From Paraspadella gotoi (Eukaryota; Animalia; Chaetognatha): a stretch of DNA of 30,638 bases. The stretch lies in the NCBI GenBank assembly GCA_051294375.1, contig JBJCIZ010000321.1:1-30638 (forward strand). Direction: 5' to 3'. Shown in pieces: positions 1,595-25,525 of this stretch (position 1 is the stretch's first letter; the number at the start of each line of letters is the position of its first letter). The translations under genes and the position numbers were made by a program. Under the pieces are notes generated by a model, which saw only the letters and a program-made list of their open reading frames with translations, was not told the origin of the DNA and searched no databases.

Positions 1595-2318
1595 AGAATT
1601 TTTGGTACACCTTTCACTTCATAGTTCATTGTGTCTAAAGTAAGAAAGGTTTTTGTGTCCACCTAAATTTATTAGTTGTAAAAGTATATGAAGTTAATTC
1701 AAATAAATTTTCAGATCCTATCTCTGGAGGCTCTGCTGCAGCATTTACAACATGCTGGAGGAGGTGGTAGCTATTAAAATAAAGAGTATATATTTTGAGT
1801 GCTGATGGTATTATTTTCATTAAAAAGCCCTTTAACTAATTTCATAACCTTTTTTTAAAAATGCAAGTATGTTTATATCCTGGAGGATACTTCTTGTACA
1901 GTTTTTATAATGACTTAAATTATGTACAAAATTTATATCTATTAATTAGATAGTAAAACAGTTTAATAAAAATAAATAGGATAAAAGTTTTTGGTAAGTC
2001 TTAAATTGATTGACCAACTACTTCTCATGGGAACCTCTTTTGAAGGATTCTGAAAATTTATCCCCACACCCCATCAATTAAAAAAAAGAAAGTTATGATA
2101 TCAAAAATAGCTTTAATAGCTGGCCAAATACTCGTAGTTACTTTTTTAATTAACAATTTTTGAACAGCATTCTTTATACGACCTGTAGAGGCATCTCCAA
2201 TATGCTGGAGTATGTGGATAAAGGCTTGCTGCTAATAAAGCTTTTAATTAAAGAATAAAATCCTTATTTTTGATATATATAATTATATAATTACTTTTAA
2301 CCAAGGTGTGCCCTACAT

Positions 2319-2922
2319 TAGGCCGGAACAGGTTGAAAACTAGAAGTTCTCTCAAATAAAAAATGGATAAGTGACTGTTAGAGAATATGAAAATAAAAAT
2401 AATTTTTAAAATTTATCTTATTGATTAGCGCATGGAAGCATTTAAAGATTATTTTATTACTATATAAAGTTAAAATTTTTTTTTAATTTTTCAATTTTTT
2501 TAAGAGATTCTGGTAGAGCTTTAAAAGTTAGATAAAGGTTATTAATACAACTTTTTAAATTGTTTTTGTTTTATTGATAAAAATTTTAAAAAAACATAAA
2601 ATTCAGCCAATGATGATGATGATGATGATTTTTAAATGTTTTTTATATTTTTAACCAATTTTTTTGTAAAAGTTTTAAAAGATTGTAGTAGTAACTGTCA
2701 TTTAACTTTTCAAGCTCTATAGGAATCCGTTCTTAAAAATTAAAATTTAAAAAAAAAATGTTTGTTATTTGTTATATATTATTAAATATTTAAAAGCTTC
2801 AGTGCAACAACCCAATGAACTAATTCAAAAAGTTGCATTGAAAATTGATTTAGTAATAGAAGGAAAAAATTTTTTTTGAGAGAACTAGAAGTTATAAAAA
2901 GTGTTAATTTTGTCCCGCCTTA
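2319..2922. mobile_element. hAT-type MITE (~600 bp, foldback)
   Basis: Termini taggccggaaca / tgtcccgcctta (9/12 inverted match). 8-bp TSD ccctacat (2311-2318) / gcctacat (2923-2930). Internal halves are diverged inverted repeats (e.g. ~2500-2560 vs ~2670-2735). Confidence 0.75.
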
Positions 2923-4055: not shown

Positions 4056-4129
4056 ATAAAATATAAATATTTTAATTTTAATTTTATTTTTTTAATTATA
4101 AATTGAAGAGACATTAATTATTGTTATGT

Positions 4130-4334
4130 GTTAGTGACAGAACCGTTCAATGTAAGCAGTCCCTGAGCTTCGGATCAGGCTGTAACACCATGTTACAGGC
4201 GGGTTAAGCGCCCCGTCCCTCTTAACTGCCAGACGACCACCGGGCTAGAACCCCGGACCTTTGGGTTGGGAGGCGAATGACTTGCCTCCGGCACCAATGG
4301 CCGCTGATGAACGGTTGGTGGATTCTAGTCCACC
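4130..4334 (-). mobile_element. tRNA(Gly)-derived SINE-like element 1
   Basis: Minus strand 4303-4234 is 70 nt with a 7-bp acceptor-like stem CGGCCAT/GTGGTCG, TCGCCTCCCA (Gly-CCC anticodon-arm-like) and a degenerate B box GGTTCTAGCCC. It is a GC-rich island in AT/(AAT)n flanks. Confidence 0.6.
4155..4230 (-). ncRNA. Twister-like ribozyme, circularly permuted (P5 type)
   Basis: Minus strand: P5 GGCAGTT..GACTGCT; GG-GACGG; GGCGCT; TAA-CC-C-GC; P3 CTGTAACA/TGTTACAG; P4 CCTGA/TCAGG; L4 TCCGAAGC. Both pseudoknots can form (CCG/CGG and GC/GC). Predicted cut U^A between 4206 and 4205. Confidence 0.7.
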
Positions 4335-4349
4335 ATAAAATATTATTTT

Positions 4350-5615: not shown

Positions 5616-8246
5616 CACAATGTATATTTGAAAAAGAGCCTCCAGGTAATAAACCCTGCTCCTGTCCTCGGTCCGCCGTATCTCGTACAAATGTTATATT
5701 TTGAAAAAGGGCCTCCAGTAAGACGTAGTAAAATTTCTAAATTTAACTTATATTAAAAATTCTAAAAATAAGAAAAACGAACAATAGTTATACTAATGAA
5801 CAATTTATATAATAAAAAAAATTATATAAATTTTACAATTTACGCAGTAGGCCATATTTATATCTAGTACTAAACACAATAAATGTAAATATTTTAACAG
5901 TTTTTCTAAGATTTTTTGCAGATTTGGGTTCGTCATAAAAAGTTGATCAAAAATTAGAAAAAGCTATATTTAAGCTGAAAATTAACTTTTATATATTAAA
6001 TATAGTTTTTTTAATTTTTAAACCCACTTAATGAAAGAAATTTTTAAAAAATGATTTATATTTTCTTTATAACAACTTTGCGAGGAATTCAAATCTGCAA
6101 TCAAAATTAAGAAAAGCCTATTTGAAATTTTTCAATTTTATAAGGATAGTACTATATATAAAATATAGCCTACTGTGAAAATTAAAAGCATAAAATTAAT
6201 TTTTTTTTACAAATTAATATTCACATGATAGTATGTATGTTCATAATTGACTTTTAGAATTTTTCATATGTAACTTTCACTAGGCCTTAGCCTCCAGGTT
6301 AACAGCCCTGCTCCTTCCTCGGTCCGCCTATCTCGTACACCAATGTTAATGTTTTTGAAAGGGACTCCAGGTTAACGCCTGCTCCTTCCTCGGTCCGCCT
6401 ATCTCGTACACAATGGTTATAGTTTTTGAAAAAGGGACTCCAGGTTAACGCCTGCTCCTTGCCTCGGTCCGCCTATCTCGTACACAATGTTATGTTTTAA
6501 GAAAGGGACTCCCAGGTTAAACGCCCTGCTCCTTCCTCGGTCCGCCTATCTCGTACACAATGTTATATTTTTGAAAAAGGGACTCCAGGTTAACGCCCTG
6601 CTCCTTCCTCGGTCCACTATCTGTACACAATGTCATATTTTGAAAAAGGGCCTCCAGGTTAACGCCCTGCTCCTTCCTCGGTCCACCTATACTCGTACAC
6701 AATGTCATATTTTGAAAAAGAGGCCTCCAGGTTAAGCCCTGCTCCTTCCTCGGTCCGCCTATCTCGTACACAATGTCATATTTTGAAAAGGGCCTCCAGG
6801 TTAATGCCTGCTCCTTCCTCGGTCCGCCTATCTCGTACACAATGTCATATTTTGAAAAAGGGCCTCCAGGTTAACGCCCTGCTCCTTCCTCGGTCCGCCT
6901 ATCTCATACCAATGTCATATTTTTGAAAAAGGCCTCCAGGTTAACGCCCTGCTCCTTCCTCGGTCCCGCCTATCTCGTACACAATGTCATATTTTTGAAA
7001 GGGCCTCCAGGTTAACGCCCTGCTCCTTCCTCGGTCCGCCTATCTCGTACACAATGTATATTTTGAAAAGGGACTCCAGGTTAACGCCCTGCTCTTCCTC
7101 GGTCCTAATCTCGTACACAATGTTATATTTTGAAAAAGGGACTCCAGGTTAACGCCCTGCTCCTTCCTCGGTCCGCCAATCTCGTACAAAATGTTATATT
7201 TTGAAAAAAGGCCTCCAGAGTTAACGGCCCTGCTCCTTCCTCGGTCCGCCCATCTCGTACACACAATGTTATATTTTGAAAAAAGGCCTCCAGGTTAACG
7301 CCCATGCTCCTTCCTCGGTCCGCCCATCTCGTACACAAAATGCATATTTTGAAAAAGGGCCTCCAGGTTAACAGCCCTGCTCCTTCCTCGGTCGCCCATC
7401 TCGTACACAATGTCATATTTTGAAAAGGGCCTCCAGGTTAACGCCCTGCTCCTTCCTCGGTCCGCCCATCTCGTACACAATGTCATATTTTGAAAAAGGG
7501 CCTCCAGGTTATACGCCCTGCTCCTTCCTCGGTCCGCCCATCTCGTACACAAATGTCATATTTTGAAAAAGGGCCTCCAGGTTAACGCCCTGCTCCTTCC
7601 TCGGCCGCCCATCTCGTACACAATGTCATATTTTGAAAAAGGGCCTCCGGTAACGCCCTGCTCCTTCCTCGTCCGCCCATCTGTACACAATGTCATATTT
7701 TGAAAAAGGCCTCCAGGTTAACGCCCTGCTCCTTCCTCGGTCCGCCTATCTCGTACACAATGTTATATTTTGAAAAAGGGCCTCCAGGTTAACGCCCTGC
7801 TCCTTCCTCGGTCCGCCTATCTCGTACACAATGTTATATTTGAAAAAGGGCCTCCAGGTTAACGCCCTGCTCCTTCCTCGGTCCGCCTATCTCGTACACA
7901 ATGATATATTTTGAAAAAGGGCCTCCAGGTTAACGCCCTGCTCCTTCTCGTCCGCCTATCTCGTACACAATGTTATATTTTGAAAAAAGGGCCTCCAGGT
8001 TAACGCCCTGCTCCTTCCTCGGTCCGCCTATCTCGTACAAATAGTATATATTTGAAAAAGGGCCTCCAGGTTAACGCCCTGCTCTTCCTCGGTCCGCCTA
8101 TCTCGTACAACAATGATATTTTGAAAAAAGGGCCTCCAGGTTAACGCCCTGCTCCTTCCTCGTCGCCTATCTCGTACAAACAATGATATATTTTGAAAAA
8201 GGCCTCCAGGTTAACGCCCTGCTTCCTTCCTCGGTCCGCCTATCTC
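5616..8246. repeat. 71-bp tandem minisatellite (~27 units at 6290-8246, plus ~1.5 units at 5616-5718)
   Basis: Unit cacaatgtcatattttgaaaaagggcctccaggttaacgccctgctccttcctcggtccgcctatctcgta; spacing 7741->7812 = 71 bp; no spacers. Confidence 0.95.
5719..6289. mobile_element. hAT-type MITE inserted into the 71-bp satellite
   Basis: Perfect 8-bp TSD gcctccag (5711-5718 and 6290-6297). TIR taagacgtagtaaaa / tttcactaggcctta (12/15). Internal inverted halves (5845-5872 vs 6147-6176; 5900-5945 vs 6072-6117). Confidence 0.85.
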
Positions 8247-8945
8247 TCTCGTCTTTTCTGTTTTTCTTGCACTGGCTATGGATCGTGCCCACATCCCACC
8301 CACCACCGATTTGGTATCACCAATTTACTAATTATACTAAACTCGAGCAAATATTCTAAATCTTCTACTTTTTAGTTTGAATAATAATGACATCAATCGT
8401 TTATTAAATTATTAAAATTTACATCATTCAGACATACACTTTTGTATTTTATTTTTAAGGCATAATTCTTGTTTTGCTATTAAATCTTTTATACGAATAT
8501 ATTTTTAAGAAATAGGTTATTAAACCTACAATATGCAAATAAGAGTAGGTCACTTTTTTGTTGGTTACTAGATGGATCTCTGATTGTCCGTTTCTCAGGT
8601 CTCAAGCGTCTCCCGTCCCGTGTAAGTTTGACGAGGGTAAATAAGGAATTAAACGTGAATTAAGAAAGTAGTATTAATGTTTATAATGCCTATATAAAAC
8701 CCGTAAAACTCTAGTTGAGGACGAGTGAAACCATTCCAAAAAAGTCAAGAAACGAACTAAATCAGTGATCACAACAAAAGCAACGATGACGATGATGACA
8801 ATAATGCCTCCTGTTCAATCACACACTTTTCTACTCACATACATAATGTGGTATTCCTTTCGTTTCGTTGTGTTTTGGTGTTTTAGCGAAAACAAAGTTT
8901 AGAGTTTGTACTACAACGATTTTTTATTTAACATAAACAGACATG

Positions 8946-9075
8946 TTTTGGCTCTTGTTCAAGCCTTCATCACTTGAAGGCTTGAACAACTTGCAGAATT
9001 TGGTCAACTGGCATAATTTGGTCAACTTTAAGAATTTGGTCAACTGGCATATTTTTTTCAATTGGCATAATTTGG

Positions 9076-9118
<43 letters not shown>

Positions 9119-9698
9119 GAGAGAGATGGAGAGAGAGAAACTTTAAAAAATTCAAATAAATGTGTCTTTTGGTTTTCTAATTTGAACTCTTTTCCACTCA
9201 TATGATTCCATCAAAAAATTTATATCCAGCTTTATCACATACTTTCGTACCCACTCACAAAATTCAATTTCGATTTATCTATCCAATTTTTAATAAACAT
9301 AATAATTATGAGTAAATTTAAGTTAAAATACTTCAAGTAAATATGACTTTTGTGTTTTTCCATTTTAACTCATTTCCACTCGCACGATTCCATCGAAACT
9401 TTATATCCAGCTCAATCACACACTTTCCTACCATCATACAAAATTTCAAGTCAATTGTCTTATCCACTCATGAGCAATTTGCGTTCAAATAGTGAAATAT
9501 ATTTTTTTGATTTTTCCATTTAAACCAATTTCCACTCGCACGATTCCCTCGAAACTTCATATCCACCTCAATCACAGAGTTTCCTACCCACACACAAAAT
9601 TTCATACCAATCCATCCATCCAATCACGAGTAATTGGAGTTCTTTGCTAAGGTGGGATGGACGGACGGACGGACATCGTTTTTTTTGCATAATAGCGA
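8946..9698 (-). mobile_element. Helentron/DINE-like non-autonomous element(s)
   Basis: 15-bp perfect hairpin 8955-8989, aatttggtcaact repeats, (AATC)n, three ~160-185-bp degenerate core repeats (9190, 9373, 9529), (GGAC)n and a ttttgcataat terminus. May be a composite of two elements. Confidence 0.55.
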
Positions 9699-9731
9699 GG
9701 CCTTGTGATATTTTCCGTCATCCACCCTACT

Positions 9732-9756
9732 NNNNNNNNNNNNNNNNNNNNNNNNN
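9732..9756. other. 25-N assembly gap
   Basis: Exactly 25 Ns, at the start of the inverted arm. Confidence 1.
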
Positions 9757-11003
9757 TTACTGAAAGAAGCAGAAGATGTTCAACGTTTTCACGTTAAATG
9801 TCAGTTTTTAATAATAAAATAGCAATTTTTTATGTCCATAGCTTTCACAGCTCACAAGACATTACCTTTAACAATATTTCAATGTTAATGTAATGTATTG
9901 TATATTTTACTAGAAATTATTAAGATTAGAAGTTGTAGATTTCCTTTCGCTCTTAAGGAAAAAAATAACCTAGCGGAATTAAGGAAGAGGAAGTCAGAAT
10001 CGCTTTGATTAATCTTAAATATTGTAGATGATGTTGAAAAAGGAGGAGAATTTGGTAGTCAGATTTAGGACTAAGCTTGACGACAAGCAGAGGTTTTTTA
10101 ATATATCTTATACCGGCCAATATAGAATGATGTGCAATATTGTTTAATTATTTAATTTCAAAAAAATCCTACCCATACCCAATCATAGAAAATATCAACT
10201 AAAGTCTTCGGAAAAATCACCCCTTCTGTTGCGAAGCTTTTGCGAGAAGATTTATCTGGAATCTGACTCGGTTGAAAAATCTTAGATTCCGATCGTTACT
10301 CCTCTTTTACTTCTTTAAATTAAAAATTTCACAAAATGGCACCAATTCACTTTCCCATGATCCGCTACATATTAAATACCCAATAACCAATCGTAAAGCA
10401 AATTTGCAGCAGCCCTTCAACATATGGCTATCGGATTCCTGAATTTGAAGTTTATTGTAAAATCGACAACATATGTTAAACTGCGTTGACATTTGTATTA
10501 TACGTTGAGAAATCCTTTATTTGTATATAAAATTGGCATCAAATATTTTCCGCGCGGCCCACCCAGTCTCATGGAATCTAGATGGTTTAATGTCAAAATG
10601 ATGGTGTATTTGTCTAGAGGAAAACAATGCGAGCCCTTCAGATTGCAACAGGATCACTCGAGGTTTCTACATTACTCTATTTACCTGAATTTTTCCAGGA
10701 GTGTGACATTTTGGTAGTCAATTTAATGAAAATCTCATTGAAAAAAGTCTTCCTCGACTTTCTCTAAACGACGTAATCTCCTATGTCAATTCTTCTAAAC
10801 CATTGCCATTTAGACGTACTAAGATTTACTCTATCGCAGTCATTCTCTATCCAAAATATAAAAATATGAAAAGGTTTTGGATCGACTTTGGATTTGGTTC
10901 TAGACTATAAGTTTTTGATTACCCTAGGGCTAACGCTAGGATGAACCCTGCAGGGGAAAGGCTTTATCCTGATGGATTAAATTAGATTAGTTATTTATTT
11001 AAC

Positions 11004-13240
11004 CTATCTTTCCATTTGCTGTCCACATTGGGCAAGGATTACTCTGTGTTGTCTCTTTTTTTTTTCAAACGGTAAGACGCCAGCTTCAGCAGCTAAGCAG
11101 CTTTCCTGTTTTTTCTACGAGGTTGAAAATAACGCTAAAGAGCAATTGTGACTCAAGAAGCTCCAGCACCTTTTTGATAGTGCCTGGTTTGCATGGAAGG
11201 CATATTCTAGTGTATTATGGACTATAGGTTCCGGCAAACAATTACTACTACAAGAGACACGCACCTTCATTTCGAGATTTTGATGTTACAGGGCTTTATT
11301 TGCATTTTGTTTGCCAGAAAGTTTTTGATATGTGCCTTTGGACACTTTTTGGCAAACTTCGGGTACCCATGGGACTCTGAAAAATGTCCCTGGATCACAT
11401 TTTTAACACTTTGCTACCAATTTCAGCTGTTCATAGCAAGTGGACAACTTTTGCAATTTCTGGAACTGTTTTTCTGGTTATAGTACCAGAAATGGGCCAT
11501 TTTATACAATTTCTAGATCCAACTTTGCTAGAATAATTCTTCCAGAACGACCAGGTTTGCAATGGTGGTGAACTTCAATCAGAATACAATTCCCAAGTTG
11601 GGCAGAAATTACAATGTCTAGCACTTTCATAGATGAAAATTGAACCTTTTTGACATGAGCTGCATTTTTTTCCACCAAGCACGTTAGAATAAAGTTCCTT
11701 TTTGACATGGTCTGCATTCCTTTGTCCCTTTTCTGAACTTAATTGCACCATAAGGACAGAATTACCAAATTTAATGCCAGGCACAATCTTGTACACTTCA
11801 GCAGAGCAAGCGAATACATGGTTTTTATATCATAAGATGCAATTCGTTACAATCCAGAAGCCGACAACGTGATAGCCACGTATTTATCAGTTCCATTTAT
11901 GATCCTATCACCATTTTCTACTCTCATCAACAGGCTCGACAGCGATCTGCAACGTTTTTACATTTCCTCCATATACTTACTCTCTTGTGGCAGTTAAATA
12001 ACATATGCCCTCCTATAGAAGGACCTCACAATGCACTCAATTCGTAATTTAACTTTATCATGGCTAACACGGGATGAAAAGAAAATTAACTGCTTTTCTC
12101 CTGTCCAAATGAGTTTAAAACCTTAGCTTTTGTTCTTACGGCCTCTGTATTAAGCCGCTTTTGAAAGCAAAAACAGTTCGTATTTCCAGATTCAGGGGGA
12201 TGATTTTCCCGTATTCGGACGCAACCTCATCCTCATTAATCATGTAAATGATATAGGCAAAAAAAATAGTTTTCAAACAACTTTGCATCACCAGTGTTCC
12301 AATACAGAGCAATCCTTGCATATTTTTGTTTCAACCCCCTGTAAAACAACACCTTCTTTGTTTAATTTGAACATAATACCATGTTGCATGTTGTCTTGGA
12401 ATAACTGCAAAAATGATAAATATATCTCCATCTGTTGCAGCAATGAAATCAATGCAGATATGGTTTTTGTGTTATGTCCAATGTAAGTGCATTACCCCAT
12501 TTAATATTACATGGTAAAGCACCAGGCCTTTCAACCTTGTTACTTAATGTTAGATTAAAAAAAGAAATTTCCAAAACCTTTGCAACAGGATAGTTTAAAA
12601 ACATATCCTCTAAATTTTTAAAACTTTTTTATTGAACTAAAACTTTTTTTATCCATTATAAGCATTCCAGCTCGATCATAGCTTAGCAACCACTCCTGAA
12701 TGCAATAGGGTTTTTAAGGAAACCCGTTTTCTGGAATATAACATCCATTTTCGGGAGGAAATCGTCTGAATCACACTCGAGAATACCATTTATTTGCCTT
12801 ATATACGACAAAGAATGTCTGCTCTTTACAATCAAATTCGGAATGTCAAATGGCATTTCAAATTGAACTTTAAACTTTTGTGACTTCAATTTCACAAATG
12901 ATGGAAATTGGTATCATTTTTTCATTTAACTGGAGTACTGAATGGTATCAGTTTTCACATCCAGGTTTACCAGCATTTAAAAGAAAGGAAGTTACTGGAG
13001 TGGCTCCTTCAGTCATATAGACAGCTATAGCTCGTTTTAAACTTTCAAGTCTGGCTGAATATCTTTTTTTTAAAATCTTCTAAATCTTTGTACTTACAAA
13101 ACATTTGTTGAGAAGAAAAAGTTTTATTTTGAGCAGGCAAAATGTAGCTTTGAATGCTTTTTTTTTTTGTTGTGCGCATTTTCCAACAGAGCCAAGAGGA
13201 AATAAAGTATCCATTTTGATGTCCAATAACTCGTCAATGG
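11004..13240 (-). pseudogene. Frameshifted mirror copy of the Cys-rich exon (pseudogene, or more likely an uncorrected read copy)
   Basis: ORF fragments match the 731-aa ORF (KLKSQKFKVQFEMPFDIPNLI, YSNVLGGKKCSSCQKG, EIRTVFA). Indel density rises toward the gap at 9756. Confidence 0.85.
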
Positions 13241-13371
13241 CTGAAAAAATATAAAGACAATATTATTGCACGATTTGTCAGAGAGGATGAGAAAGAAAAA
13301 AAAAGTACCATCTCTGAAACCTATAAATTTATAGTATACCTCGGAATAACTCTGACAAAAAAATCCATAGG

Positions 13372-13462
13372 TTTATAGTCGGATCTGCTTATCAGCAGAT
13401 CCCAACTCTATAATTCACTTTGTCGGTCCGTCGGTCCGCCCCAATATTGTCGGGCATTCACT
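13372..13462 (+). mobile_element. Helentron-like terminus (mirror of 23096-23189)
   Basis: tttatagtc, hairpin ggatctgct/agcagatcc, caactctataa, tttgtcggtccgtcggtcc. Confidence 0.5.
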
Positions 13463-16203
13463 TATACACGGTTCCCTAGACACCCCGAAAAAGAAAAATA
13501 GAAATAACCCATTTCTGAAACACAAAAAATGAAAAATATAATGTTTTTACTACATCGTAGTGAGTCGAAAAATTCTGATCCAAGCAAGTTTTTTTTATTG
13601 AATTTAAAGTTTGTTATAAATTTTTCATACCAAAATAATGAGAAACTAATCAACAACTTTGTCATTCTTTGTCAAATTTTACTTTCTTTATATCAATCAT
13701 TATCTACTGAAAGAGACTTTAATTTGAACTCACTCTCTAAGCCTACGATATTCGTTCTCAAGTTATTATTAAAAATAACTCAATTTATTACAAAAATAGT
13801 AACCATTTTGTAATTACTACATGAAGACTTAATCAATCTTATTTAATAAAAAACTATGAAATGTAACATACAATTGCTTAGCTTCAAAATTAACCTAATT
13901 TTAAATTTTCTTCAACCAATAATTACTATGAAATGCTATGTATAAAATTGTTAAATTTTATATATATTTTTAAATAATTTAACATCAAGCAAGAACATAA
14001 TTAGTAATATTATACATCCAAAAGAATCCTCATTTTATGATCTTTCTTTTGAGTCTAATCTCGGTTCTCTGTGATAATTCGTTTTGAGATATTGACAAAA
14101 ACAATTCCAAAAATGCTTAAAAAATAAAAAAATATTCAAAAAATATTAATATTTGAGTCAATTTTTGATATATTTTATCATAAAAGTTTTAATTGATAGG
14201 AAAATATACCAATAATAAATTAAATTTCATATTTAAATATTTTTTAATCAAACATGACTTGTGATCGCCTTTTTTCCTCCAAAAATTACAAATAAAATTA
14301 TGATTTGTCTATTTTTTGCTAATATTTTAAGCTTTTATATTAAAATTCTACTGAAAAATGATATAATAAAAAAATATGGCCATTTGTGATTCTAACGAGC
14401 TATCATACTTTTAAAATCATAAAAAATAAGTATTATGAAGTCAAAATGAAAAAAATGTCAGTACCGAAATCGATTTTTAGTAATTTCTTAGAGAGAGAGA
14501 GAGAGGAGAGAGAGAGAAAGAGAGAGAGAAAGGGAGAGAGAGAGAAGGGGGAGGGAGATAAGATAGAAAGCCTTATTATTATAAATTATATTATATTACT
14601 ATTATATATTATTATATTATATTACTAAATTATATATACTATATTATATTATTACTGTGGATAGGCGCTAAGTGGGCTGAGATGACTATCCGTAACTTCT
14701 ATAACCCCTTTAGTAGCCATGGAACGGTCCTGGGCTTGGGAACCAGGCTTGAGGGGTTGCCACGCCCCAAGGCGGCTTACGGCCATCCTCACGCTCCCAC
14801 AGGGTAGGTACCGGGTTGGGATTGAACCCGGTACCTAGTGGTCATGAGATGATGGCTTTACTCCATAGACCACCGGGTCAGGACTGAAGGTGTCATGATT
14901 ATAGGGGGGTGAACCTAGGCAATGCCCGACTACATTACTATATTATATTATTACTATATTATTCACAAGTAGGAGAGTAAAAAACGGTTAATATTAAAAT
15001 TTTGTCTTTTATATTATATAGTATAATATAAATAGTAATATAATAATATAGTACAATATAATATAATATAGTAATATAATATAATAATATAATAATAAGG
15101 CTTTCTATCTTTATCTCCCTCCCCTCCTCTCTCTCTCCCTTTCTTCTCTCTCTTTCTCTCTCTCTCTAAGAAATTACTAAAATCGATTTCGGTACTGACA
15201 TTTTTTTTCATTTGACTTCATAATACTTATTTTTTATGATATTTTAAAGTATGATAGCTCGTTAGAATCAAAAATAGCCATATTTTTTTATTATATCATT
15301 TTTTCAGTAAGAATTCTAATATTAAAAGCTTAAAATATTAGCAAAAAATAGACAAATCACAATTTTATTTGTATATATTTGGAGAAAAAAGGCGATCACA
15401 AGTCATGTTTGATTAAAAAATCTTTAAATATGAAATTAATTTATATTGGCATATTTTCCTATCAATTAAAAACCTTTATGATAAAATCTATCGAAAATTG
15501 ACTCAAATATTAATATTTTTGAATATTTTTTTTACTTTTTAAGCATTTTGTGGAATTGTTTTTGTCAATATCTTAAAAACGAATTATCACAGAGAACTGA
15601 GATTAGACTCAAAAGAAAGATCTAAAATAGGGATTCTTTTGGATGTATAATATTACTAATTATGCTCTTGCTTGATGTTAAATTATTTTAAATATATATA
15701 TATAAATTTAACATTTTATACATAGCATTTCATAGTAGTTATTGGTTGAGAAAAATTTAAAATTAGGTTAATTTTGAAGCTAAGCAATTGTATGTTACAT
15801 TTCTAATAGTTTTTATTAATAAGAATTGATTAAGTCTTTCATGTAGTAATTACAAAATGGTTACTATTTTTGTAATAAATTGAGTTATTTTCAAAATAAC
15901 TTGAGAACGAATAATCATAGGCTTATGAGAGTGAGTTCAAATTAAAGCTCTCTTTCAGTAGATAATGATTGATATAAAGAAAGTAAAATTTGACAAAGAA
16001 TGACAAAGTTGTTGATTAGTTTCTTTCATATTTGTATGAAAAATTATAACAAAACTTTAAAATCAATTAAAAAAAAACTTGCTTGGATCAGAATTTTTTC
16101 GACTTCACTACGATGTAGTAAGACATTATATTTTTCATTTTTTTGTGTTTCAAAATGGGTTATTTCTATTTTCTTTTTCGGGGTGTCTAGGGAACCGTGT
16201 ATA
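13463..16203. mobile_element. Foldback non-autonomous DNA transposon, ~1.2-kb TIRs (mirror copy)
   Basis: Termini TAtacacggttccctagacaccccgaaaa / ttttcggggtgtctagggaaccgtgtaTA. Arms ~13463-14640 and ~15010-16203. TA flanks suggest Tc1/mariner. Confidence 0.8.
14655..14934 (-). mobile_element. tRNA-derived SINE-like element 2 with twister-like motif at 14717-14802 (mirror copy)
   Basis: Reverse complement of 21576-21855. Confidence 0.6.
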
Positions 16204-16291
16204 TCATGTCAGAACACGAATTATGATTAATTATGCAAAAAAAAGATGTCCGTCCATCCATCTGTCCGTCCGTCCATCCGTCCATCCGTCC

Positions 16292-16580
16292 GCACTATAA
16301 GACTTAGTAGGGTGGATGACGGAAAATATCACAGCCTCGCTATCGAGCCAGAACGACTACACTATAAGAGCTTAGAGGGTGGATGACGGAAAATATCACA
16401 GGGCCTCGCTATCGAGCCAGAACGCTACAACTATAAGAGCTAGTAGGGTGGATGACGGAAAATATCACAGGGCCTCGCTATCGAGCCAGAACGACTACAC
16501 TATAAGAGCTTAGTAGGGTGGATGACGGAAAATATCACAGGGCCTTGCTATCGAGCCAGAAGACTACACTATAAGAGCTT
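16292..16580. repeat. 70-bp tandem repeat, ~4 units (mirror copy)
   Basis: Unit ctataagagcttagtagggtggatgacggaaaatatcacagggcctcgctatcgagccagaacgactaca, following a (GTCC)n head. Confidence 0.9.
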
Positions 16581-16690: not shown

Positions 16691-18455
16691 TCGTACTCAC
16701 ATGTTATGTTTGAAAAAGGGACTCCAGGTTAACGCCCTGCTCCTTCCTCGGTCCCCTATCTCGTACACAATGTCATATTTGAAAAAGGGCGCCTCCAGGT
16801 TAACGCCTGCTCCGTTCCTCGGTCGCACCTATCTCGTACACAATGTCATATTTTGAAAAAGGGCCTCCAGTTAACGCCCTGCTCCTTCCTCGTCCAGCCT
16901 ATCTCGTACAAACAATGTCAATATTTTGAAAAAAGGGCCTCCAGGTTAAGCCTGCCCTTCCTCGGTCCGCCTATCTCGTACACAATGTCATATTTGAAAA
17001 GGGCCATCCAGGTTAATCGCCCTGCTCCTTGCCTCGGTCCGCCTATCTCGTACAGATCAATGTCATATTTTTGAAAAAGAGGCCTCCAAGGTTAACGCCC
17101 TGCTTCCTTCTCGGTCCGCCTATCGTACACAATGTCATATTTTGAAAAGGCCTCCAGGTTAACGCCCTGCTCGCTTCCTCGGTCCGCCTATCTCGTAGCA
17201 CAATGTCATATTTTTGAAAAGGGCTCCAGGTTAACGCCCTGCTCCTTCCTCAGGTTCGCCTATTCGTACACAATGTTATAATTTTGAAAAGGGACTCCAG
17301 GTGTAACGCCCTGCTCTTCCTCGGTCCGCCTATCTCGGTACAAATGTTATATTTTGAAAAAAGGGACTCCAGTTAAGCCCTGCTCCTTCCCGGTCCGCCC
17401 ATCTCGTACAACAATGTTATATTTTGGAAAAAAAGGCCTCCAGGGTTAACGCCCTGCTCCTTCCTCGGTCCGCGCCATCTCGTACACAATGTTAATATTT
17501 TGAAAAAGCGGCTCCAGGTTAACGCCCTGCTCCGTCCTCGGTCCGCCATCACGTAACACAAATGTCATATTTTGAAAAGGGCCTCCAGGTTAACGCCCTC
17601 TACCTTCCTCGGTCCGCCCATCTCGTACACAATGTCATATTTGAAAAAAGGGCCTCCAGGTTAACGCCCTGCTCCTTCCTCGGTCCGCCCATCTCGTACA
17701 CATGTCATATTTTGAAAAAGGCCTCAGGTTAACGCCCTGCTCCTTCCTCGGTCCGCCCATCTCGTACACAAGTCATATTTTGAAAAAGGGCCTCCAGGTT
17801 AACGCCCTGCTCCTTCCTCGGCCGCCCATCTCGTACACAATGTCATATTTTGAAAAAGGCCTCCAGGTTAACGCCCTGCTCCTTCCTCGGTCCGCCCATC
17901 TCGTACACAATGTCATATTTTGAAAAAGGCCTCCAGGTTAACGCCCTGCTCCTTCCTCGGTCCGCCTATCTCGTACACAATGTTATATTTTGAAAAAGGG
18001 CCTCAGGTTAACGCCCTGCTCCTTCCTCGGTCCGCCTATCTCGTACACAATGTCATATATTTGAAAAAAGGGCCTCCAGGTTAACGCCCTGCTCCTTCCT
18101 CGTCCGCCTATCTCGTACACAATGATATATTTTGAAAAAGGGCCTCCAGGTTAACGCCCTGCTCCTTCTCGATCCGCCTATCTCGTCACACAATGATATA
18201 TTTTGAAAAAGGGCCTCCAGGTTAACGCCCTGCTCCTTCTCGGTCCGCCTATCTCGTACAAATGATATATTTGAAAAAAGGGCCTCCAGGTTAACGCCCT
18301 GCTCTCTCTCGGTCGCCTATCTCGTACACAATGATATATTTTGAAAAAGGGCCTCCAGGTTAACGCCTGCTCCTTCCCGGCCGCCTATCTCGTACACAAT
18401 GATATATTTGAAAAGGCTCCAGGTTAAGCCCTGCTCTTCCTCGTCCGCCTATCTC
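16691..18455. repeat. 71-bp tandem minisatellite, second array (~25 units)
   Basis: Same unit, orientation and variant order as 6290-8246. Confidence 0.95.
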
Positions 18456-19277
18456 TCTCGTCTTTTCTGTTTTTCTCTGCACTGGCTATGGATCGTGCCC
18501 ACATCCCACCCACCACCGATTTGGTATCACCAATTTACTAATTATACTAAACTCGGCAAATATTCTAAATCTTCTACTTTTTAGTTTGAATTAATAATGA
18601 CATCAATCGTTATTAAAATTATTAAAATTTACATCATTCAGACATAACTTTTGTATTTTATTTTAAGGCATAATTCTTGTTTTGCTATAAATCTTTTATA
18701 CGAATATATTTTTAAGAAATAGGTTATTAAACCTACAATATGCAAATAAAGTAGGTCACTTTTTTGTTGGTTACTAGATGGATCTCTGATTGTCGTTTCT
18801 CAGGTTCTCAAGCGTCTCCCGTCCCGTGTAAGTTGACGAGGGTAAATAAGGAATGTAACGTGAATTAAGAAATAGTATTAATGTTTATAATGCCTATATA
18901 AAACCCGTAAAACTCTAGTTGAGGACGAGGTGAAACCATTCCAAAAAAGTCAAGAAACGAAACTAAATCAGTGATCACAACAAAAGCAACGATGACGATG
19001 ATGACAATAATGCCTCCTGTTCAATCACACACTTTTTACTCACATACATAATGTGGTATTCCTTTCGTTTCGTTGTGTTTTGGTGTTTTAGCGAAAACAA
19101 AGTTTAGAGTTTGTACTACAACATTTTTTATTTAACATAAACATACATGTTTTGGCTCTTGTTCAGCCTTCATCACTTGAAGGCTTGAACAACTTGCAGA
19201 ATTTGGTCAACTGGCATAATTGGTCAACTTTAAGAAATTGGTCAACTGGCATATTTTTTTCAATTGGCATAATTTGG

Positions 19278-19321
<44 letters not shown>

Positions 19322-19936
19322 CAATCAATAGAGAGAGATGGAGAGAGAGAAACTTTAAAAATTCAAATAAATGTGTCTTTTGGTTTTCTAATTTGAACTC
19401 TTTTCCACTCATATGATCCATCAAAAAATTTATATCCAGCTTTATCACATACTTTCGTACCCATCACAAAATTCAATTTCGATTTATCTATCCAATTTTT
19501 AATAAACATAATAATATGAGTAAATTTAAGTTAAAATACTTCAAGTAAATATGACTTTTTGTGTTTTTCCATTTTAACTCATTTCCACTCGCACGATTCC
19601 ATCGAAACATTATAATCCAGCTCAATCACACACTTTCCTACCATCATACAAAATCAAGTCAATTGTTTATCCACTCATGAGCAATTTGCGTTCAAATAGT
19701 GAAATATATTTTTTTGATTTTTCCATTTTAACCAATTTCCACTCGCACGATTCCCTCGAAACTTCATATCCACCTCAATCACAGAGTTTTCTACCCACAC
19801 ACAAAAATCATACCAATCCATCCATCCAATCACGAGTAATTGGAGTTCTTTGCTAAGGTGGGATGGACGGACGGACGGACATCGTTTTTTTGCATAATAG
19901 CGAGGCCTTGTGATATTTTCCGTCATCCACCCTACT
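16691..19936 (+). repeat. ~3.2-kb direct repeat of ~6480-9731
   Basis: Satellite plus downstream sequence 18456-19936 is near-identical to 8247-9731; differences are mostly 1-bp indels. Confidence 0.95.
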
Positions 19937-20217
19937 AAGCTCTTATAGTGTAGTCGTTCTGGCTCGATAGCAAGGCCCTGTGATATTTTCCGTCATCCAC
20001 CCTACTAAGCTCTTATAGTGTAGTCGTTCTGGCTCGATAGCGAGGCCCTGTGATATTTTCCGTCATCCACCCTACTAGCTCTTATAGATGTAGCGTTCTG
20101 GCTCGATAGCGAGGCCCTGTGATATTTTCCGTCATCCACCCTCTAAGCTCTTATAGTGTAGTCGTTCTGGCTCGATAGCGAGGCTGTGATATTTTCCGTC
20201 ATCCACCCTACTAAGTC
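19898..20217. repeat. 70-bp tandem repeat, ~4.5 units, between two (GGAC)n-ttttgcataat element heads
   Basis: tgatattttccgtcatccac recurs at 19911, 19981, 20051, ~20120 and ~20187. Confidence 0.9.
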
Positions 20218-21341
20218 TAAGTGCGGACGGATGGACGGATGGCGGACGGACAGATGGATGGACGGACATCTTTTTTTTGCATAATTAATCATAAATTCTG
20301 TTCTGACATGATATACACGGTTCCCTAGACACCCCGAAAAAGAAAATAGAAATAACCCATTTCTGAAACACAAAAAAATGAAAAATATAATGTTTACTAC
20401 ATCGTAGTGAAGTCGAAAAATTCTGATCCAAGCAAGTTTTTTTTTAATTGAATTTTAAAGTTTTGTTATAATTTTTCATACAAATATGAGAAACTAATCA
20501 ACACTTTGTCATTCTTTGTCAAATTTTACTTTCTTTATATCAATCATTATCTACTGAAAGAGAGCTTTAATTTGAACTCACTCTCATAAGCCTAGATTAT
20601 TCGTTCTCAAGTTATTATTAAAATAACTCAATTTATTACAAAAATAGTAACCATTTTGTAATTACTACATGAAAGACTTAATCAATTCTTATTAATAAAA
20701 ACTATAGAAATGTAACATACAATTGCTTAGCTTCAAAATTAACCTAATTTTAAATTTTTCTTCAACCAATAACTACTATGAAATGCTATGTATAAAATTG
20801 TTAAATTTATATATATATTTTAAATAATTTAACATCAAGCAAGAGCATAATTAGTAATATTATACATCCAAAAGAATCCTCATTTTATGATCTTTCTTTT
20901 GAGTCTAATCTCAGTTCTCTGTGATAATTCGTTTTTAGATATTGACAAAAACAATTCCACAAAATGCTTAAAAAGTAAAAAAAATATTCAAAAATATTAA
21001 TATTTGAGTCAATTTTCGATAATTTTATCATAAAAGGTTTTAATTGATAGGAAAATATGCCAATAATAAATTAAATTTCATATTTAAAGATTTTTTAATC
21101 AAACATGACTTGTGATCGCCTTTTTTCTCCAAAATATACAAATAAAATTGTGATTTGTCTATTTTTTGCTAATATTTTAAGCTTTTAATATTAGAATTCT
21201 TACTGAAAAATGATATAATAAAAAAATATGGCTATTTTTGATTCTAACGAGCTATCATACTTTAAAATATCATAAAAAATAAGTATTATGAAGTCAAAAT
21301 GAAAAAAAATGTCAGTACCGAAATCGATTTTAGTAATTTCT

Positions 21342-21375
<34 letters not shown>

Positions 21376-21575
21376 GAGAGAGAGAGGAGGGGAGGGAGAT
21401 AAAGATAGAAAGCCTTATTATTTATATTATATTATATTACTATATTATATTATATTTACTATATTATTATATTACTATTTATATTATACTATATAATATA
21501 AAAGACAAAATTTTTAATATTAACCGTTTTTTACTCTCCTACTTGTGAATAATATAGTAATAATATAATATAGTA

Positions 21576-21855
21576 TGTAGTCGGGCATTGCCTAGGTTCA
21601 CCCCCCTATAATCATGACACCTTCAGTCCTGACCCGGTGGTCTATGGAGTAAAGCCATCATCTCATGACCACTAGGTACCGGGTTCAATCCCAACCCGGT
21701 ACCTACCCTGTGGGAGCGTGAGGATGGCCGTAAGCCGCCTTGGGGCGTGGCAACCCCTCAAGCCTGGTTCCCAAGCCCAGGACCGTTCCATGGCTACTAA
21801 AGGGGTTATAGAAGTTACGGATAGTCATCTCAGCCCACTTAGCGCCTATCCACAG
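21576..21855 (+). mobile_element. tRNA-derived SINE-like element 2
   Basis: A-box-like TGGTCTATGG (21638-21647), CTCATGA anticodon-like loop (Met-like), B box GGTTCAATCCC (21682-21692). GC-rich island in (TAA)-like low-complexity flanks. Confidence 0.65.
21708..21793 (+). ncRNA. Twister-like ribozyme, circularly permuted (P5 type)
   Basis: P5 CTGTGGGA/TTCCATGG; GT-GAGGA; TGGCCG; TAA-GC-C-GC; P3 CTTGGGG..CCCCTCAAG; P4 CCTGG/CCAGG; L4 TTCCCAAGC (one nt longer than canonical). Predicted cut between 21731 and 21732. Confidence 0.55.
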
Positions 21856-21874
21856 TAATAATATAATATAGTAT

Positions 21875-21899
21875 NNNNNNNNNNNNNNNNNNNNNNNNN
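21875..21899. other. 25-N assembly gap
   Basis: Exactly 25 Ns; the mirror copy is essentially contiguous across this point. Confidence 1.
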
Positions 21900-22005
21900 A
21901 ATATAATTTAGTAATATAATATAATAATATAATATAGTAATATAATATAATTATATAATAATAAGGCTTTCTATCTTTATCTCCCTCCCCCTTCTCTCTC
22001 TCTCC

Positions 22006-22050
<45 letters not shown>

Positions 22051-23095
22051 AGAAATTACTAAAAATCGATTTCGGTACTGACATTTTTTTTCATTTTGAC
22101 TTCATAATACTTATTTTTTATGATATTTTAAAGTATGATAGCTCGTTAGAATCACAAATGGCCATATTTTTTTATTATATCATTTTTCAGTAAGAATTTT
22201 AATATTAAAAGCTTAAAATATTAGCAAAAAATTGACAAATCATAATTTTATTTGTATATTTTTGGAGAAAAAAGGCGATCACAAGTCATGTTTGATTAAA
22301 AAATATTTAAATATGAAATTTAATTTATTATTGGTATATTTTCCTATCAATTAAAACCTTTTATGATAAAATATATCAAAAATTGACTCAAATATTAATA
22401 TTTTTGAATATTTTTTTTATTTTTTAAGCATTTTGTGGAATTGTTTTTGTCAATATCTCAAAAACGAATTATCACAGAGAACCGAGATTAGACTCAAAAG
22501 AAAGATCATAAAATGAGGATTCTTTTGGATGTATAATATTACTAATTATGTTCTTGCTTGATGTTAAATTATTTAAAAATATATATATAAAATTTAACAA
22601 TTTTATACATAGCATTTCATAGTAATTATTGGTTGAAGAAAAATTTAAAATTAGGTTAATTTTGAAGCTAAGCAATTGTATGTTACATTTCTATAGTTTT
22701 TTATTAAATAAGAATTGATTAAGTCTTTCATGTAGTAATTACAAAATGGTTACTATTTTTGTAATAAATTGAGTTATTTTTAATAATAACTTGAGAACGA
22801 ATAATCGTAGGCTTATGAGAGTGAGTTCAAATTAAAGCTCTCTTTCAGTAGATAATGATTGATATAAAGAAAGTAAAATTTGACAAAGAATGACAAAGTT
22901 GTTGATTAGTTTCTCATTATTTTGTATGAAAAATTATAACAAAACTTTAAAATTCAATTAAAAAAAAACTTGCTTGGATCAGAATTTTTCGACTTCACTA
23001 CGATGTAGTAAAAACATTATATTTTTCATTTTTTTGTGTTTCAGAAATGGGTTATTTCTATTTTCTTTTTCGGGGTGTCTAGGGAACCGTGTATA

Positions 23096-23189
23096 AGTGA
23101 ATGCCCGACAATATTGAGGGGGCGGACCGACGGACCGACAAAGTGAATTATAGAGTTGGGATCTGCTGATAAGCAGATCCGACTATAAA
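23096..23189 (-). mobile_element. Helentron-like terminus interrupted by the foldback element
   Basis: 9-bp hairpin ggatctgct-gata-agcagatcc (23159-23180) next to ggaccgacggaccgacaaa. Confidence 0.5.
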
Positions 23190-23323
23190 CCTATGGATTT
23201 TTTTGTCAGAGTTTAGTCCGAGGTATACTATAAAATTTTATAGGTTTCAGAGATGGTACTTTTTTTTTCTTTCTCATCCTCTCTGACAAATCGTGCAATA
23301 ATATTGTCTTTATATTTTTTCAG

Positions 23324-25525
23324 CCATTGACGAGTTATTGGACATCAATATGGATACTTTATTTCCTCTTGGCTCTGTTGGAAAATGCGCACAACAAAAA
23401 AAAAGCATTCAAGCTGACATTTTGCCTGCTCAAAATAAAACTTTTTCTTCTCAACAAATGTTTTGTAAGTACAAAGATTTAGAAGATTTTAAAAAAAGAT
23501 ATTCAGCCAGACTTGAAAGTTTAAAACGAGCTATAGCTGTCTATATGACTGAAGGAGCCACTCCAGTAACTTCCTTTCTTTTAAATGCTGGTAAACCTGG
23601 ATGTGAAACTGATACCATTCAGTACCTCCAGTTAAATGAAAAAAATGATACCAATTTTCCATCATTTGTGAAATTGAAGTCACAAAAGTTTAAAGTTCAA
23701 TTTGAAATGCCTTTTGACATTCCGAATTTGATTGGTAAAGAGCAGACATTCTTTGTCGTATATAAGGCAAATAAATGGTATTCTTCGAGTGATGATTCAG
23801 ACGATTTCCCTCCCGAAAATGGATGTTATATTCCAGAAACGGGTTTCCTTAAAAACCCTATTTGCATTCAGGGAGTGTTGCTAAGCTATGATGGAGCTGG
23901 AATGCTTATAATGGATAAAAAAAGTTTTAGTTTCAATAAAAAAGTTTTAAAAAATTTAGAGGATATGTTTTTAAACTATCCTGTTGCAAAGGTTTTGGAA
24001 ATTTCTTTTTTTAATCTAACATTAAGTAAACAAGGTGAAAGGCCTGGTGCTTTACCATGTAATATTAAATGGGGTAATGCACGTACATTGGACATAACAC
24101 AAAACCATATCTGCATTGATTTCATTGCTGCAACAGATGGAGATATATTTATCATTTTTGCAGTTATTCCAAGACAACATGCAACATGGTATTATGTTCA
24201 AATTAACAAAGAAGGTGTTGCTTTTTACAGGGGGTTGAAACAAAAATATGCAAGGATTGCTCCTGGTATTGGAACACTTGGTGATGCAAAGTTGTTTGAA
24301 AACTATTTTTTTTGCCTATATCATTTACATGATAATGATATTATTCTCCAATACGGAAAATCATCCCCTGAATCTGAAATACGAACTGTTTTTGCTTCAA
24401 AGCGCTTTAATACAGGAGGCGTAAGACAAAAGCTAAGGTTTTACTCATTTGGAACAGGAGAAAAAGCAGTTAATTTTCTTTTCATCCGTGTTAGCCATGA
24501 TAAATTAAATTTACAATGTAGTGCATTGTGGGTCTTCTATGAGGGCATATGTTATCTTAACTGCCACAAAGAATGTAAGTATATTGGAAAATGTAAAAAA
24601 CCTGCAGATCCTTCAGCCTGTTATGAATGTAAAAATTATAGGATCATAAATGGAACTGATAAATACTGTGCTATCACTTGTCCTTCTGGATTTACAATTG
24701 CATCTTATGATATAAAAACATGTATTCCTTGCTCTGCTGGAATGTACAAGATTGGTCCTGGCATTAAAATTTGTAATTCATGTCCTTATGGTGAATTTAG
24801 TTCAAAAAAGGGATCAAAGGAATGCAGACCATGTCAAAAAGGAACTTATTCTAACGTGCTTGGTGGAAAAAAATGCAGCTCATGTCAAAAAGGTCAATTT
24901 TCATCTATGAAAGGTGCTAGACATTGTAATTTCTGCCCACTGGGAATGTATTCTGATTTTGAAGGTTCACCACATTGCAAACCATGCGTTCCTGGAGAAT
25001 ATTCTAGCAAAGTTGGATCAGAAATTTGTATAAAATGCCATTCTGGTACTTATAACCAGAAAAAAGGTTCCAGAAATTGCAAAAGTTGTCCAGTTGGCTA
25101 TGAACAGCCTGAAATTGGTAGCAAAATGTGTAGAAAATGTGATCCAGGACATTTTTCAGAGTCCATGGGTACCCGAGTTTGCAAAAAGTGTCCAAAAGGC
25201 ACATATCAAAAACTTTCTGGCAAAACAAAATGCAATAAATGCCCTGTAACATCAAAATCTCAAATGGAAGGTGCTGTCTCTTGTAGTAGTAATTGTTTGC
25301 CGGGAACCTATAGTCCTAATAACACTGAAATATGCCTTCCATGCAAACCAGGCACCTATCAAAAAGGTGCTGGAGCTTCTGAGTGTCACAATTGCTCTTT
25401 AGGTTATTTTCAACCTCTAGAAAAACAGGAAAGCTGCTTAGCTGCTGAAGCTGGCTCTTACGTTAAAGAAAAAGGAGCAACACAGAGTAATCCTTGCCCA
25501 AGTGGCACAGCAAATGGAAAGATAG
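23324..25525 (+). CDS. Internal exon of a cysteine-rich repeat protein (GCC2/GCC3, ephrin-receptor-like repeats, furin-like region, possible FAMeT-like domain)
   Basis: 731-aa ORF; C-terminal half is a series of ~17-aa CxxCxxG(T/Q)(Y/F) repeats. Acceptor ttttttcag|cc at 23323/4 and donor g|gtaaat at 25525/6, both phase 1, 2202 nt. The ORF has no signal peptide and stops just past the donor. Confidence 0.85.

Follow-up and report, generated by a model that had tools for sequence, protein, structure and literature searches.

The window, that is, the whole stretch of 30,638 nt of the Paraspadella gotoi contig that was analysed, contains one copy of a dispersed repeat, in which a tRNA-derived unit is followed by a twister-like ribozyme core (Table 1); no second copy of the repeat was found within the window. 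This copy adjoins (ATA)n and (TAT)n arrays. Other features of the window are represented by a duplication of about 10 kb with 93–94% identity, part of which is direct and part inverted; two unrelated tandem arrays with units of 69–71 bp, the second of which adjoins (GTCC)-type microsatellites; a 1.2-kb repeat, the four copies of which form two inverted pairs; and patchy inverted repeats, separated by about 1.8 kb, which are possibly the arms of a DNA transposon. Two open frames were also found. The gag-like frame, which we take to be of the BEL/Pao type, resembles DUF1759/CCHC clusters and gave no Pfam match at 1e-3; the commonest recorded phyla of the DUF1759 clusters that it resembles are arthropods and nematodes. 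The frame of 743 aa encodes eight ephrin-receptor-like cysteine repeats, and two relatives of it were found.

Table 1. Coordinates of the repeat, its parts and the other features of the window
Feature	Position	Strand	Remarks
Flanking duplication AAAT, left copy	4100..4103	+	No other 4-bp repeat at left end 4104; matching right end is 4337
Flanking duplication AAAT, right copy	4338..4341	+	Chance 4-mer match in the AT-rich flanks about 3%
Whole repeat unit, likely solo LTR	4104..4337	minus	234 bp; TA...CA ends, TG two bases inside; from contig pile-up ends
5' (U3-like) hairpin	4316..4335	minus	7-bp stem; loop CUAGAA complementary to T-loop of tRNA-like unit
9-bp perfect inverted repeat, 5' arm	4308..4316	minus	Brackets tRNA-like unit and twister; pairs with 4141-4149 in predicted fold
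tRNA-derived unit	4233..4304	minus	72 nt; 7-pair acceptor stem, A-box-like and B-box-like motifs, anticodon stem broken; from sequence
P5-order twister-like ribozyme	4155..4230	minus	Predicted cut U4206/A4205; P1 vestigial, P2 of 3 pairs with bulge; basis: descriptor match, pair probabilities
P5 helix	4230-4224 / 4161-4155	minus	7 pairs including G.U; open
AA linker, then P2' GAGG	P2' 4221-4218	minus	
GA, with predicted general base	4217-4216	minus	
T1' CGG	4215-4213	minus	
GGCGCU, standing where P1 belongs	4212-4207	minus	
Cleavage loop U^AA	4206-4204	minus	
P2 CCC	4203-4201	minus	
T2 GC	4200-4199	minus	
P3	4198-4180	minus	7 bp
P4	4179-4162	minus	5 bp; loop U-CCG-AAGC; Y-NNN-AAGC motif 4174-4167
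9-bp inverted repeat, 3' arm	4141..4149	minus	
3' (U5-like) end, terminal CA	4104..4140	minus	Followed by tRNA-Trp primer-binding-site-like sequence in one contig
Duplication of about 10 kb	6478-16580 and 16691-26808		
First tandem array	6290-8246, 16709-18455		About 25-28 units
Second tandem array	16293-16580, 19897-20215		
1.2-kb repeat	13463-14652, 15013-16203, 20312-21497, 21900-23095		
Patchy inverted repeats	182-508 and 2317-2889		
gag-like frame	29231-30625	+	
743-aa open frame	23302-25533	+	

The boundaries of the repeat were obtained from contigs of public assembly runs, 11 of 15 of which contain the stretch or part of it. Contigs of eight of the 15 runs were aligned, namely, 16,483 in X1 (a DNA run), 2,975 in X6, 1,066 in X5, 1,027 in X9, 333 in X8, one in X10, one in X11 and none in X14, the last two counts saying nothing on taxonomic range. 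The runs are not independent, as X5 and X9 seem to represent the same data set and some contigs occur in both X1 and X6; the assignment of X9 as RNA is a guess. In X1, X6 and X9 the contig pile-ups stop at 4102–4104 (mode 4104) and at 4337–4338 (mode 4337). Among the matches listed, the loose ends at 4104, 4103 and 4102 numbered 112, 38 and 44 contigs in X1 and 77, 22 and 29 in X6, and those at 4337 and 4338 numbered 89 and 52 in X1 and 59 and 32 in X6. The contig ends thus extend the element beyond the span of 4130–4334 given to it in the preliminary description. Inside the repeat unit, neither a terminal direct repeat nor true terminal inverted repeats were found; 33 conserved bases lie upstream of the tRNA-like unit, and 37 bp at the 3' end lie outside the 9-bp inverted repeat.

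The number of aligned contigs in X1 shows that the sequence is not single-copy, and the claim that it belongs to a high-copy mobile family is supported. Summed depth in X1 amounts to about 4 million inside the repeat against 230 on the flank, which hints at a copy number on the order of 10^4, although summed depth is not copy number. Scans of metagenome contigs (29 loci) and of viral contigs (7, 0 and 11 loci) gave chance motif matches only; none of the first 36 of these loci aligned past 26 nt, and the relaxed P5 core was found in 0 of 47. In X8, at a loose end behind 4140, two contigs carry the 37-bp end and then a different sequence resembling the terminal hairpin of the repeat; they possibly represent a related family or a deletion form without the tRNA–twister part.

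The tRNA-like unit had been described as a 70-nt tRNA-Gly-like head at 4303–4234; the unit itself was found, with a larger extent of 72 nt. Its assignment to Gly is only tentative, because the anticodon stem is broken, the T-arm is not in register and neither ARAGORN nor the Rfam scan called the unit. The sequence supports the earlier view of this unit as a tRNA-derived, putative Pol III promoter. No TTTT run is present on the minus strand of the repeat unit. On the minus strand, the 5' hairpin loop (4328–4323) and the aberrant T-loop of the tRNA-like unit (4250–4245) are perfectly complementary, and the arms of 12 nt around this pair are 83% complementary; a loop–loop contact in the RNA of a 3' LTR, or an origin of the hairpin by inverted duplication of the T-arm, is possible.

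The twister core begins two bases 3' of the tRNA-like unit on the same minus strand. The U^AA, the GA and the Y-NNN-AAGC loop of P4 are all present, both pseudoknots, T1 (CCG/CGG) and T2 (GC/GC), are complementary, and P3, P4 and P5 have pair probabilities of 0.99–1.0 in the fold prediction. A descriptor built on the twister consensus, in which the demands on P1 and P2 were relaxed, gave one match in the whole window; none of 20,000 dinucleotide-shuffled versions of the element matched it, nor did any of 150 shuffled versions of the window. The minus-strand twister core, which had first been reported with this P5 order and these motifs, is confirmed, together with the tRNA-like unit, as a real feature.

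Two parts of the core deviate from a complete twister. The site of P1, which the preliminary description had listed as an element in the order of helices, is occupied by six self-complementary nucleotides with no foldable loop, so that they form no real hairpin and not even two pairs. P2 is indeed short, as had been claimed, but its count of 2 bp was too low, three pairs being possible with a bulged A; it is one base short and not unbroken. In the Rfam scans, including the twister search that had been proposed as a check, no twister match was obtained at the gathering score or at E<=10. The twister ribozyme of type P5, which presumably corresponds to Rfam RF02684, has in common with the present core all the core nucleotides, both pseudoknots, P3, P4, an open P5 and the P5 order; the present core differs in its vestigial P1, its P2 with one base missing and a bulge, and the lack of an Rfam score. 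Judged by its predicted anatomy, the ribozyme would work like a P5 twister, though it is not filed as a member of the Rfam family.

The best 40 of 44 variant rows cover 37 sites, 18 of which are CpG positions, the bases of T1 and T2 included. Within the same 40 rows, no variant of at least 2% was found at UAA, GA or AAGC; this agrees with the conservation of these motifs across copies anticipated earlier, and the lack is not significant, as there are few other variable sites. The common differences outside CpG are located mainly in the P3 loop, the wobble pairs of the acceptor stem and P5, the A-box and the 3' end. The pattern fits the structure, with changes of the CpG, loop or wobble type only and no compensatory changes in the unphased variant tables. 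No P2 indel is present among the variants listed; accordingly, the short P2 is a trait of the family.

The predicted twister probably cleaves at U4206/A4205, a site that obeys the U–A rule of twisters (PMC8501958). Cleavage is plausible because the parts on which natural twisters depend, the pseudoknots and catalytic bases, are intact here; natural twisters are sensitive to changes in these parts, while P1 is dispensable and defects of P2 are tolerated (PMC11662667). In the fold prediction, a competing 6-bp hairpin sequesters T1', P2 and T2 with a probability of 0.99; with the pseudoknots left uncounted, it is favoured over the active scaffold by 7.7 kcal/mol. The hammerheads of plant retrozymes are likewise predicted in a blocked fold (PMC4918200). 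By analogy with dimeric hammerheads (PMC7761336), we guess that the six self-complementary bases at the P1 site could pair between two copies.

The flanks of the repeat resemble those of LTRs. The 4-bp duplication at the modal ends is exact in the window copy; near the ends of the element, 16 combinations of boundary and length give some duplication, and 4 of these 16 are of 4–5 bp. The AAAT duplication taken alone is a weak indication, because a match of this length is expected by chance at about 3% and other nearby boundary pairs also give short repeats. In the pooled flanks of the contig runs, the left side has the form N-T-A-(C/T) and the right side mostly (C/A)-T-A-N, which is the pattern expected if 4 bp are duplicated at a preferred kind of target; the right-flank consensus rows of X1 and X9 at 4337 match this pattern only in part. 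At the modal ends, the repeat starts with TA, with TG two bases inside, and ends with CA. Two alternative sets of termini, TG (4335)...CA with a duplication of 3 or 5 bp, and a TA duplication with a start at 4103, were rejected because the TA at 4336–4337 is near-invariant among the matches listed, while the left TA is not. In X1, T is present at 4103 in 82 contigs, and 38 of these do not have A at 4102.

A single contig of run X10 continues from the 3' CA of the element, on the strand of the element, as TTGGTGAGCCCGAC. The contig is 151 nt long with a depth of 5.4 and covers the element over 38 nt with two differences; its run carries the code of another organism (B). The continuation TTGGTGAGCCCGAC agrees at 13 of 14 positions with the primer-binding site for tRNA-Trp in Gypsy-32_NVi and Helenus-2_SyJa (Fig S2, PMC10886601). 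The chance of such a match was estimated by hand at about 3e-4, allowing for about 12 types of site, 4 offsets and 32 loose-end rows. The tRNA-like unit, the twister and the primer-site match are all located on one strand. Among the fragmented contigs, neither a polypurine tract nor a copy with the LTR–internal–LTR structure was seen.

The sharp ends, the 4-bp duplication, the pooled flanks and the primer-site match in one contig thus argue for an LTR. On balance, the repeat appears to be the solo LTR of a Helenus-like miniature non-autonomous LTR retrotransposon, the LTR of which holds a tRNA-derived putative promoter and then a predicted P5-type twister, although the primer site comes from one contig.

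Four other explanations were considered. According to the first, which is the main rival but unlikely, the repeat is a non-autonomous Penelope-like element of the Naiad type with an internal tRNA; its tandem precursors would be trimmed by the twister, and a GIY-YIG/RT enzyme would place the RNA in TA-rich targets. According to PMC8557442, hammerheads are absent from Naiads, their preferred target is (TA)n and a tail of 30–40 bp is often present, which is comparable to the 37 bp outside the inverted repeat, the TA-biased flanks and the neighbouring (ATA)n and (TAT)n arrays observed here; the vestigial P1 of the twister is also compatible with this origin. The 3' region of one Naiad has a 9-mer in common with the 3' end of the repeat, but in a string search this 9-mer occurred once in 584,131 characters, which is the level of chance. 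Both ends of the repeat are sharp, however, without a terminal direct repeat within the unit, and the joints listed include one head-to-tail joint, in one contig, so that the 5' truncations and partial tandems of such elements were not found. Neither a 4-bp duplication nor a primer site is characteristic of Penelope elements.

It is quite improbable that the repeat, as an LTR, belongs to an autonomous Gypsy element. In such an element, a transcript made by Pol II would have its end trimmed by the twister, and the tRNA unit would be a mere passenger. The primer site fits Gypsy-32_NVi as well as Helenus, and 30 of the 113 internal bases of the contig were seen, but the families with a tRNA in the LTR included in the available part of PMC10886601 are all short and non-coding (311–1263 bp). 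Moreover, the Pol III promoter and the absence of a TTTT run suit a short RNA.

SINE2 elements end in a variable 3' tail, which is a simple repeat or resembles a LINE, and their duplications are longer and vary in length; a SINE copied off a Pol III transcript would lose the sequence upstream of the tRNA. The preliminary description had treated the repeat as a tRNA-headed SINE-like element, and the corresponding explanation, a classical SINE copied by a LINE, in which the twister forms one end of the RNA, is very unlikely. It accounts for the tRNA-derived promoter and the high copy number; twisters are also known from Perere-3 non-LTR elements, where they occupy the 5' end (PMC8501958), and repeats of Schistosoma combine tRNA and hammerhead (PMC6765202, PMC4918200). 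A SINE should begin at its tRNA head, however, whereas the tRNA here is internal and the 33 conserved bases 5' of it would lie outside a Pol III transcript; the copies have a fixed 3' end at 4104 instead of a variable tail, and they do not stop at the predicted cut; and the flanks are LTR-like, with a duplication of 4 bp and, in one contig, a match to a primer site. The sharp ends and the conserved upstream bases largely refute the SINE reading, and the label is probably wrong.

Helentron/HINE-like elements have asymmetric inverted repeats and a terminal hairpin, comparable to the asymmetric 9-bp inverted repeats and the terminal hairpin present here, but an origin as a non-autonomous DNA element of this or another rolling-circle type with a captured tRNA–twister cassette is just as improbable as a SINE, since rolling-circle elements are not known to make a 4-bp duplication or to carry a primer site; true terminal inverted repeats are also absent here.

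For the LTR retrotransposon, the following mechanism is proposed. In a full-length copy with the LTR–internal–LTR structure, transcription by Pol III would begin within the 5' LTR, at its tRNA unit, and, with no terminator of the TTTT type, would continue through the primer site and the internal part into the 3' LTR. Cuts at both twisters of the transcript would free a unit-length RNA. This RNA would be circularised by a host ligase of the RtcB type, an enzyme for which the joining of ribozyme-made ends has been shown in animal hammerhead retrozymes (PMC7229834). Cellular tRNA-Trp would then prime a Gypsy reverse transcriptase on the circular RNA, and the cDNA would be integrated by a Gypsy integrase, which would duplicate 4 bp of the target; a route from circle to cDNA to insertion has been modelled for plant retrozymes (PMC4918200). 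Solo LTRs would arise via recombination or from short cDNAs.

If the LTR reading is right, the double-cut circle route has about an even chance of being the one followed. A clearly less probable course is that only the twister of the 3' LTR cuts; it would then serve as a terminator, and ordinary strand transfer could use the resulting repeated end of 99 nt. The same lesser weight is given to an inactive relic. The broader proposal of an animal LTR retrozyme of a new build, in which the element has its own tRNA-type promoter and each LTR carries an active twister in place of a hammerhead, so that a unit-length circular RNA is excised, is tentative and, taken as a whole, somewhat unlikely. Under this proposal, both twisters of one transcript may pair via the self-complementary remnants of P1, in which case only full-length copies would cut and solo LTRs would be harmless in host RNAs.

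Twisters are common in eukaryote genomes, and few functions have been assigned to them. If the present interpretation is true, thousands of twisters per genome can escape Rfam. The one twister found described in a mobile element belongs to a non-LTR retrotransposon, at its 5' end (PMC8501958). The twister variants of Perere-3 resemble the present repeat in joining a retroelement to a self-cleaving ribozyme, but they are twisters of type P1 at the 5' end of a LINE, whereas the repeat combines a P5-order twister with LTR-like ends (PMC8501958). Repeats of the Schistosoma SM-alpha type (PMC6765202, PMC4918200) likewise join a Pol III-type promoter to a self-cleaving ribozyme; those are tandem non-LTR repeats with hammerheads, in contrast to the dispersed monomer with LTR-like ends found here. 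In a literature search, the scope of which excluded most subscription papers and Repbase, no tRNA-bearing LTR or SINE with a twister was found described.

The closest relatives in structure are two kinds of LTR elements. Elements with a tRNA in the LTR are described without ribozymes in the available part of PMC10886601. Similar to Helenus/TRIMp3 (Kojima 2024, PMC10886601), to which it is not assigned here, the repeat contains a tRNA-derived, non-functional tRNA unit in a probable LTR of similar size, together with a 4-bp duplication of the animal type and a likely solo LTR form; a candidate tRNA-Trp primer site, seen in one contig, resembles that of Helenus-2_SyJa and Gypsy-32_NVi. It differs from Helenus in the twister that follows the tRNA and in the absence of TTTT, the Helenus LTRs inspected having, as judged by eye, mostly a short and often T-rich 3' part; the modal 5' end TA is also different, though some Helenus LTRs deviate from TG...CA as well. 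The motif CCGAAGC occurred 0 times and no twister-like LTR motif was found in the available Helenus supplement, which was searched for strings rather than structures and in which line breaks may hide matches. In Helenus-1_SyJa-LTR of a wasp, a 10-mer and an 8-mer of 4331–4309 (minus strand) were seen by eye in the same order, just 5' of its tRNA unit.

LTR retrozymes are known mainly from plants, with hammerheads (bioRxiv 10.64898/2026.07.22.740005). The plant LTR retrozymes (Cervera et al. 2016, PMC4918200) and the present repeat, on the reading preferred here, are alike in that a ribozyme of the self-cleaving type is located in the LTR of a non-coding element and is predicted in a blocked fold; a 4-bp duplication, a primer site (a candidate one in the present case) and solo LTRs are further points of agreement, the 4-bp duplication being produced by animal Helenus and plant retrozymes alike (PMC10886601, PMC4918200). 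In contrast to the plant elements, the ribozyme is a twister instead of a type III hammerhead, the host is an animal, and an internal tRNA-type promoter is present, while retrozymes are seemingly promoterless according to a review (PMC7761336). An LTR with both a tRNA and a twister would, if the interpretation is true, join two known kinds of mobile element in one and show how a Pol III-driven LTR element forms RNA ends without a terminator inside the LTR. By analogy, the repeat would work like an LTR retrozyme without being a member of that group, the twister replacing the type III hammerhead, and the retrozyme strategy would extend to a second ribozyme class.
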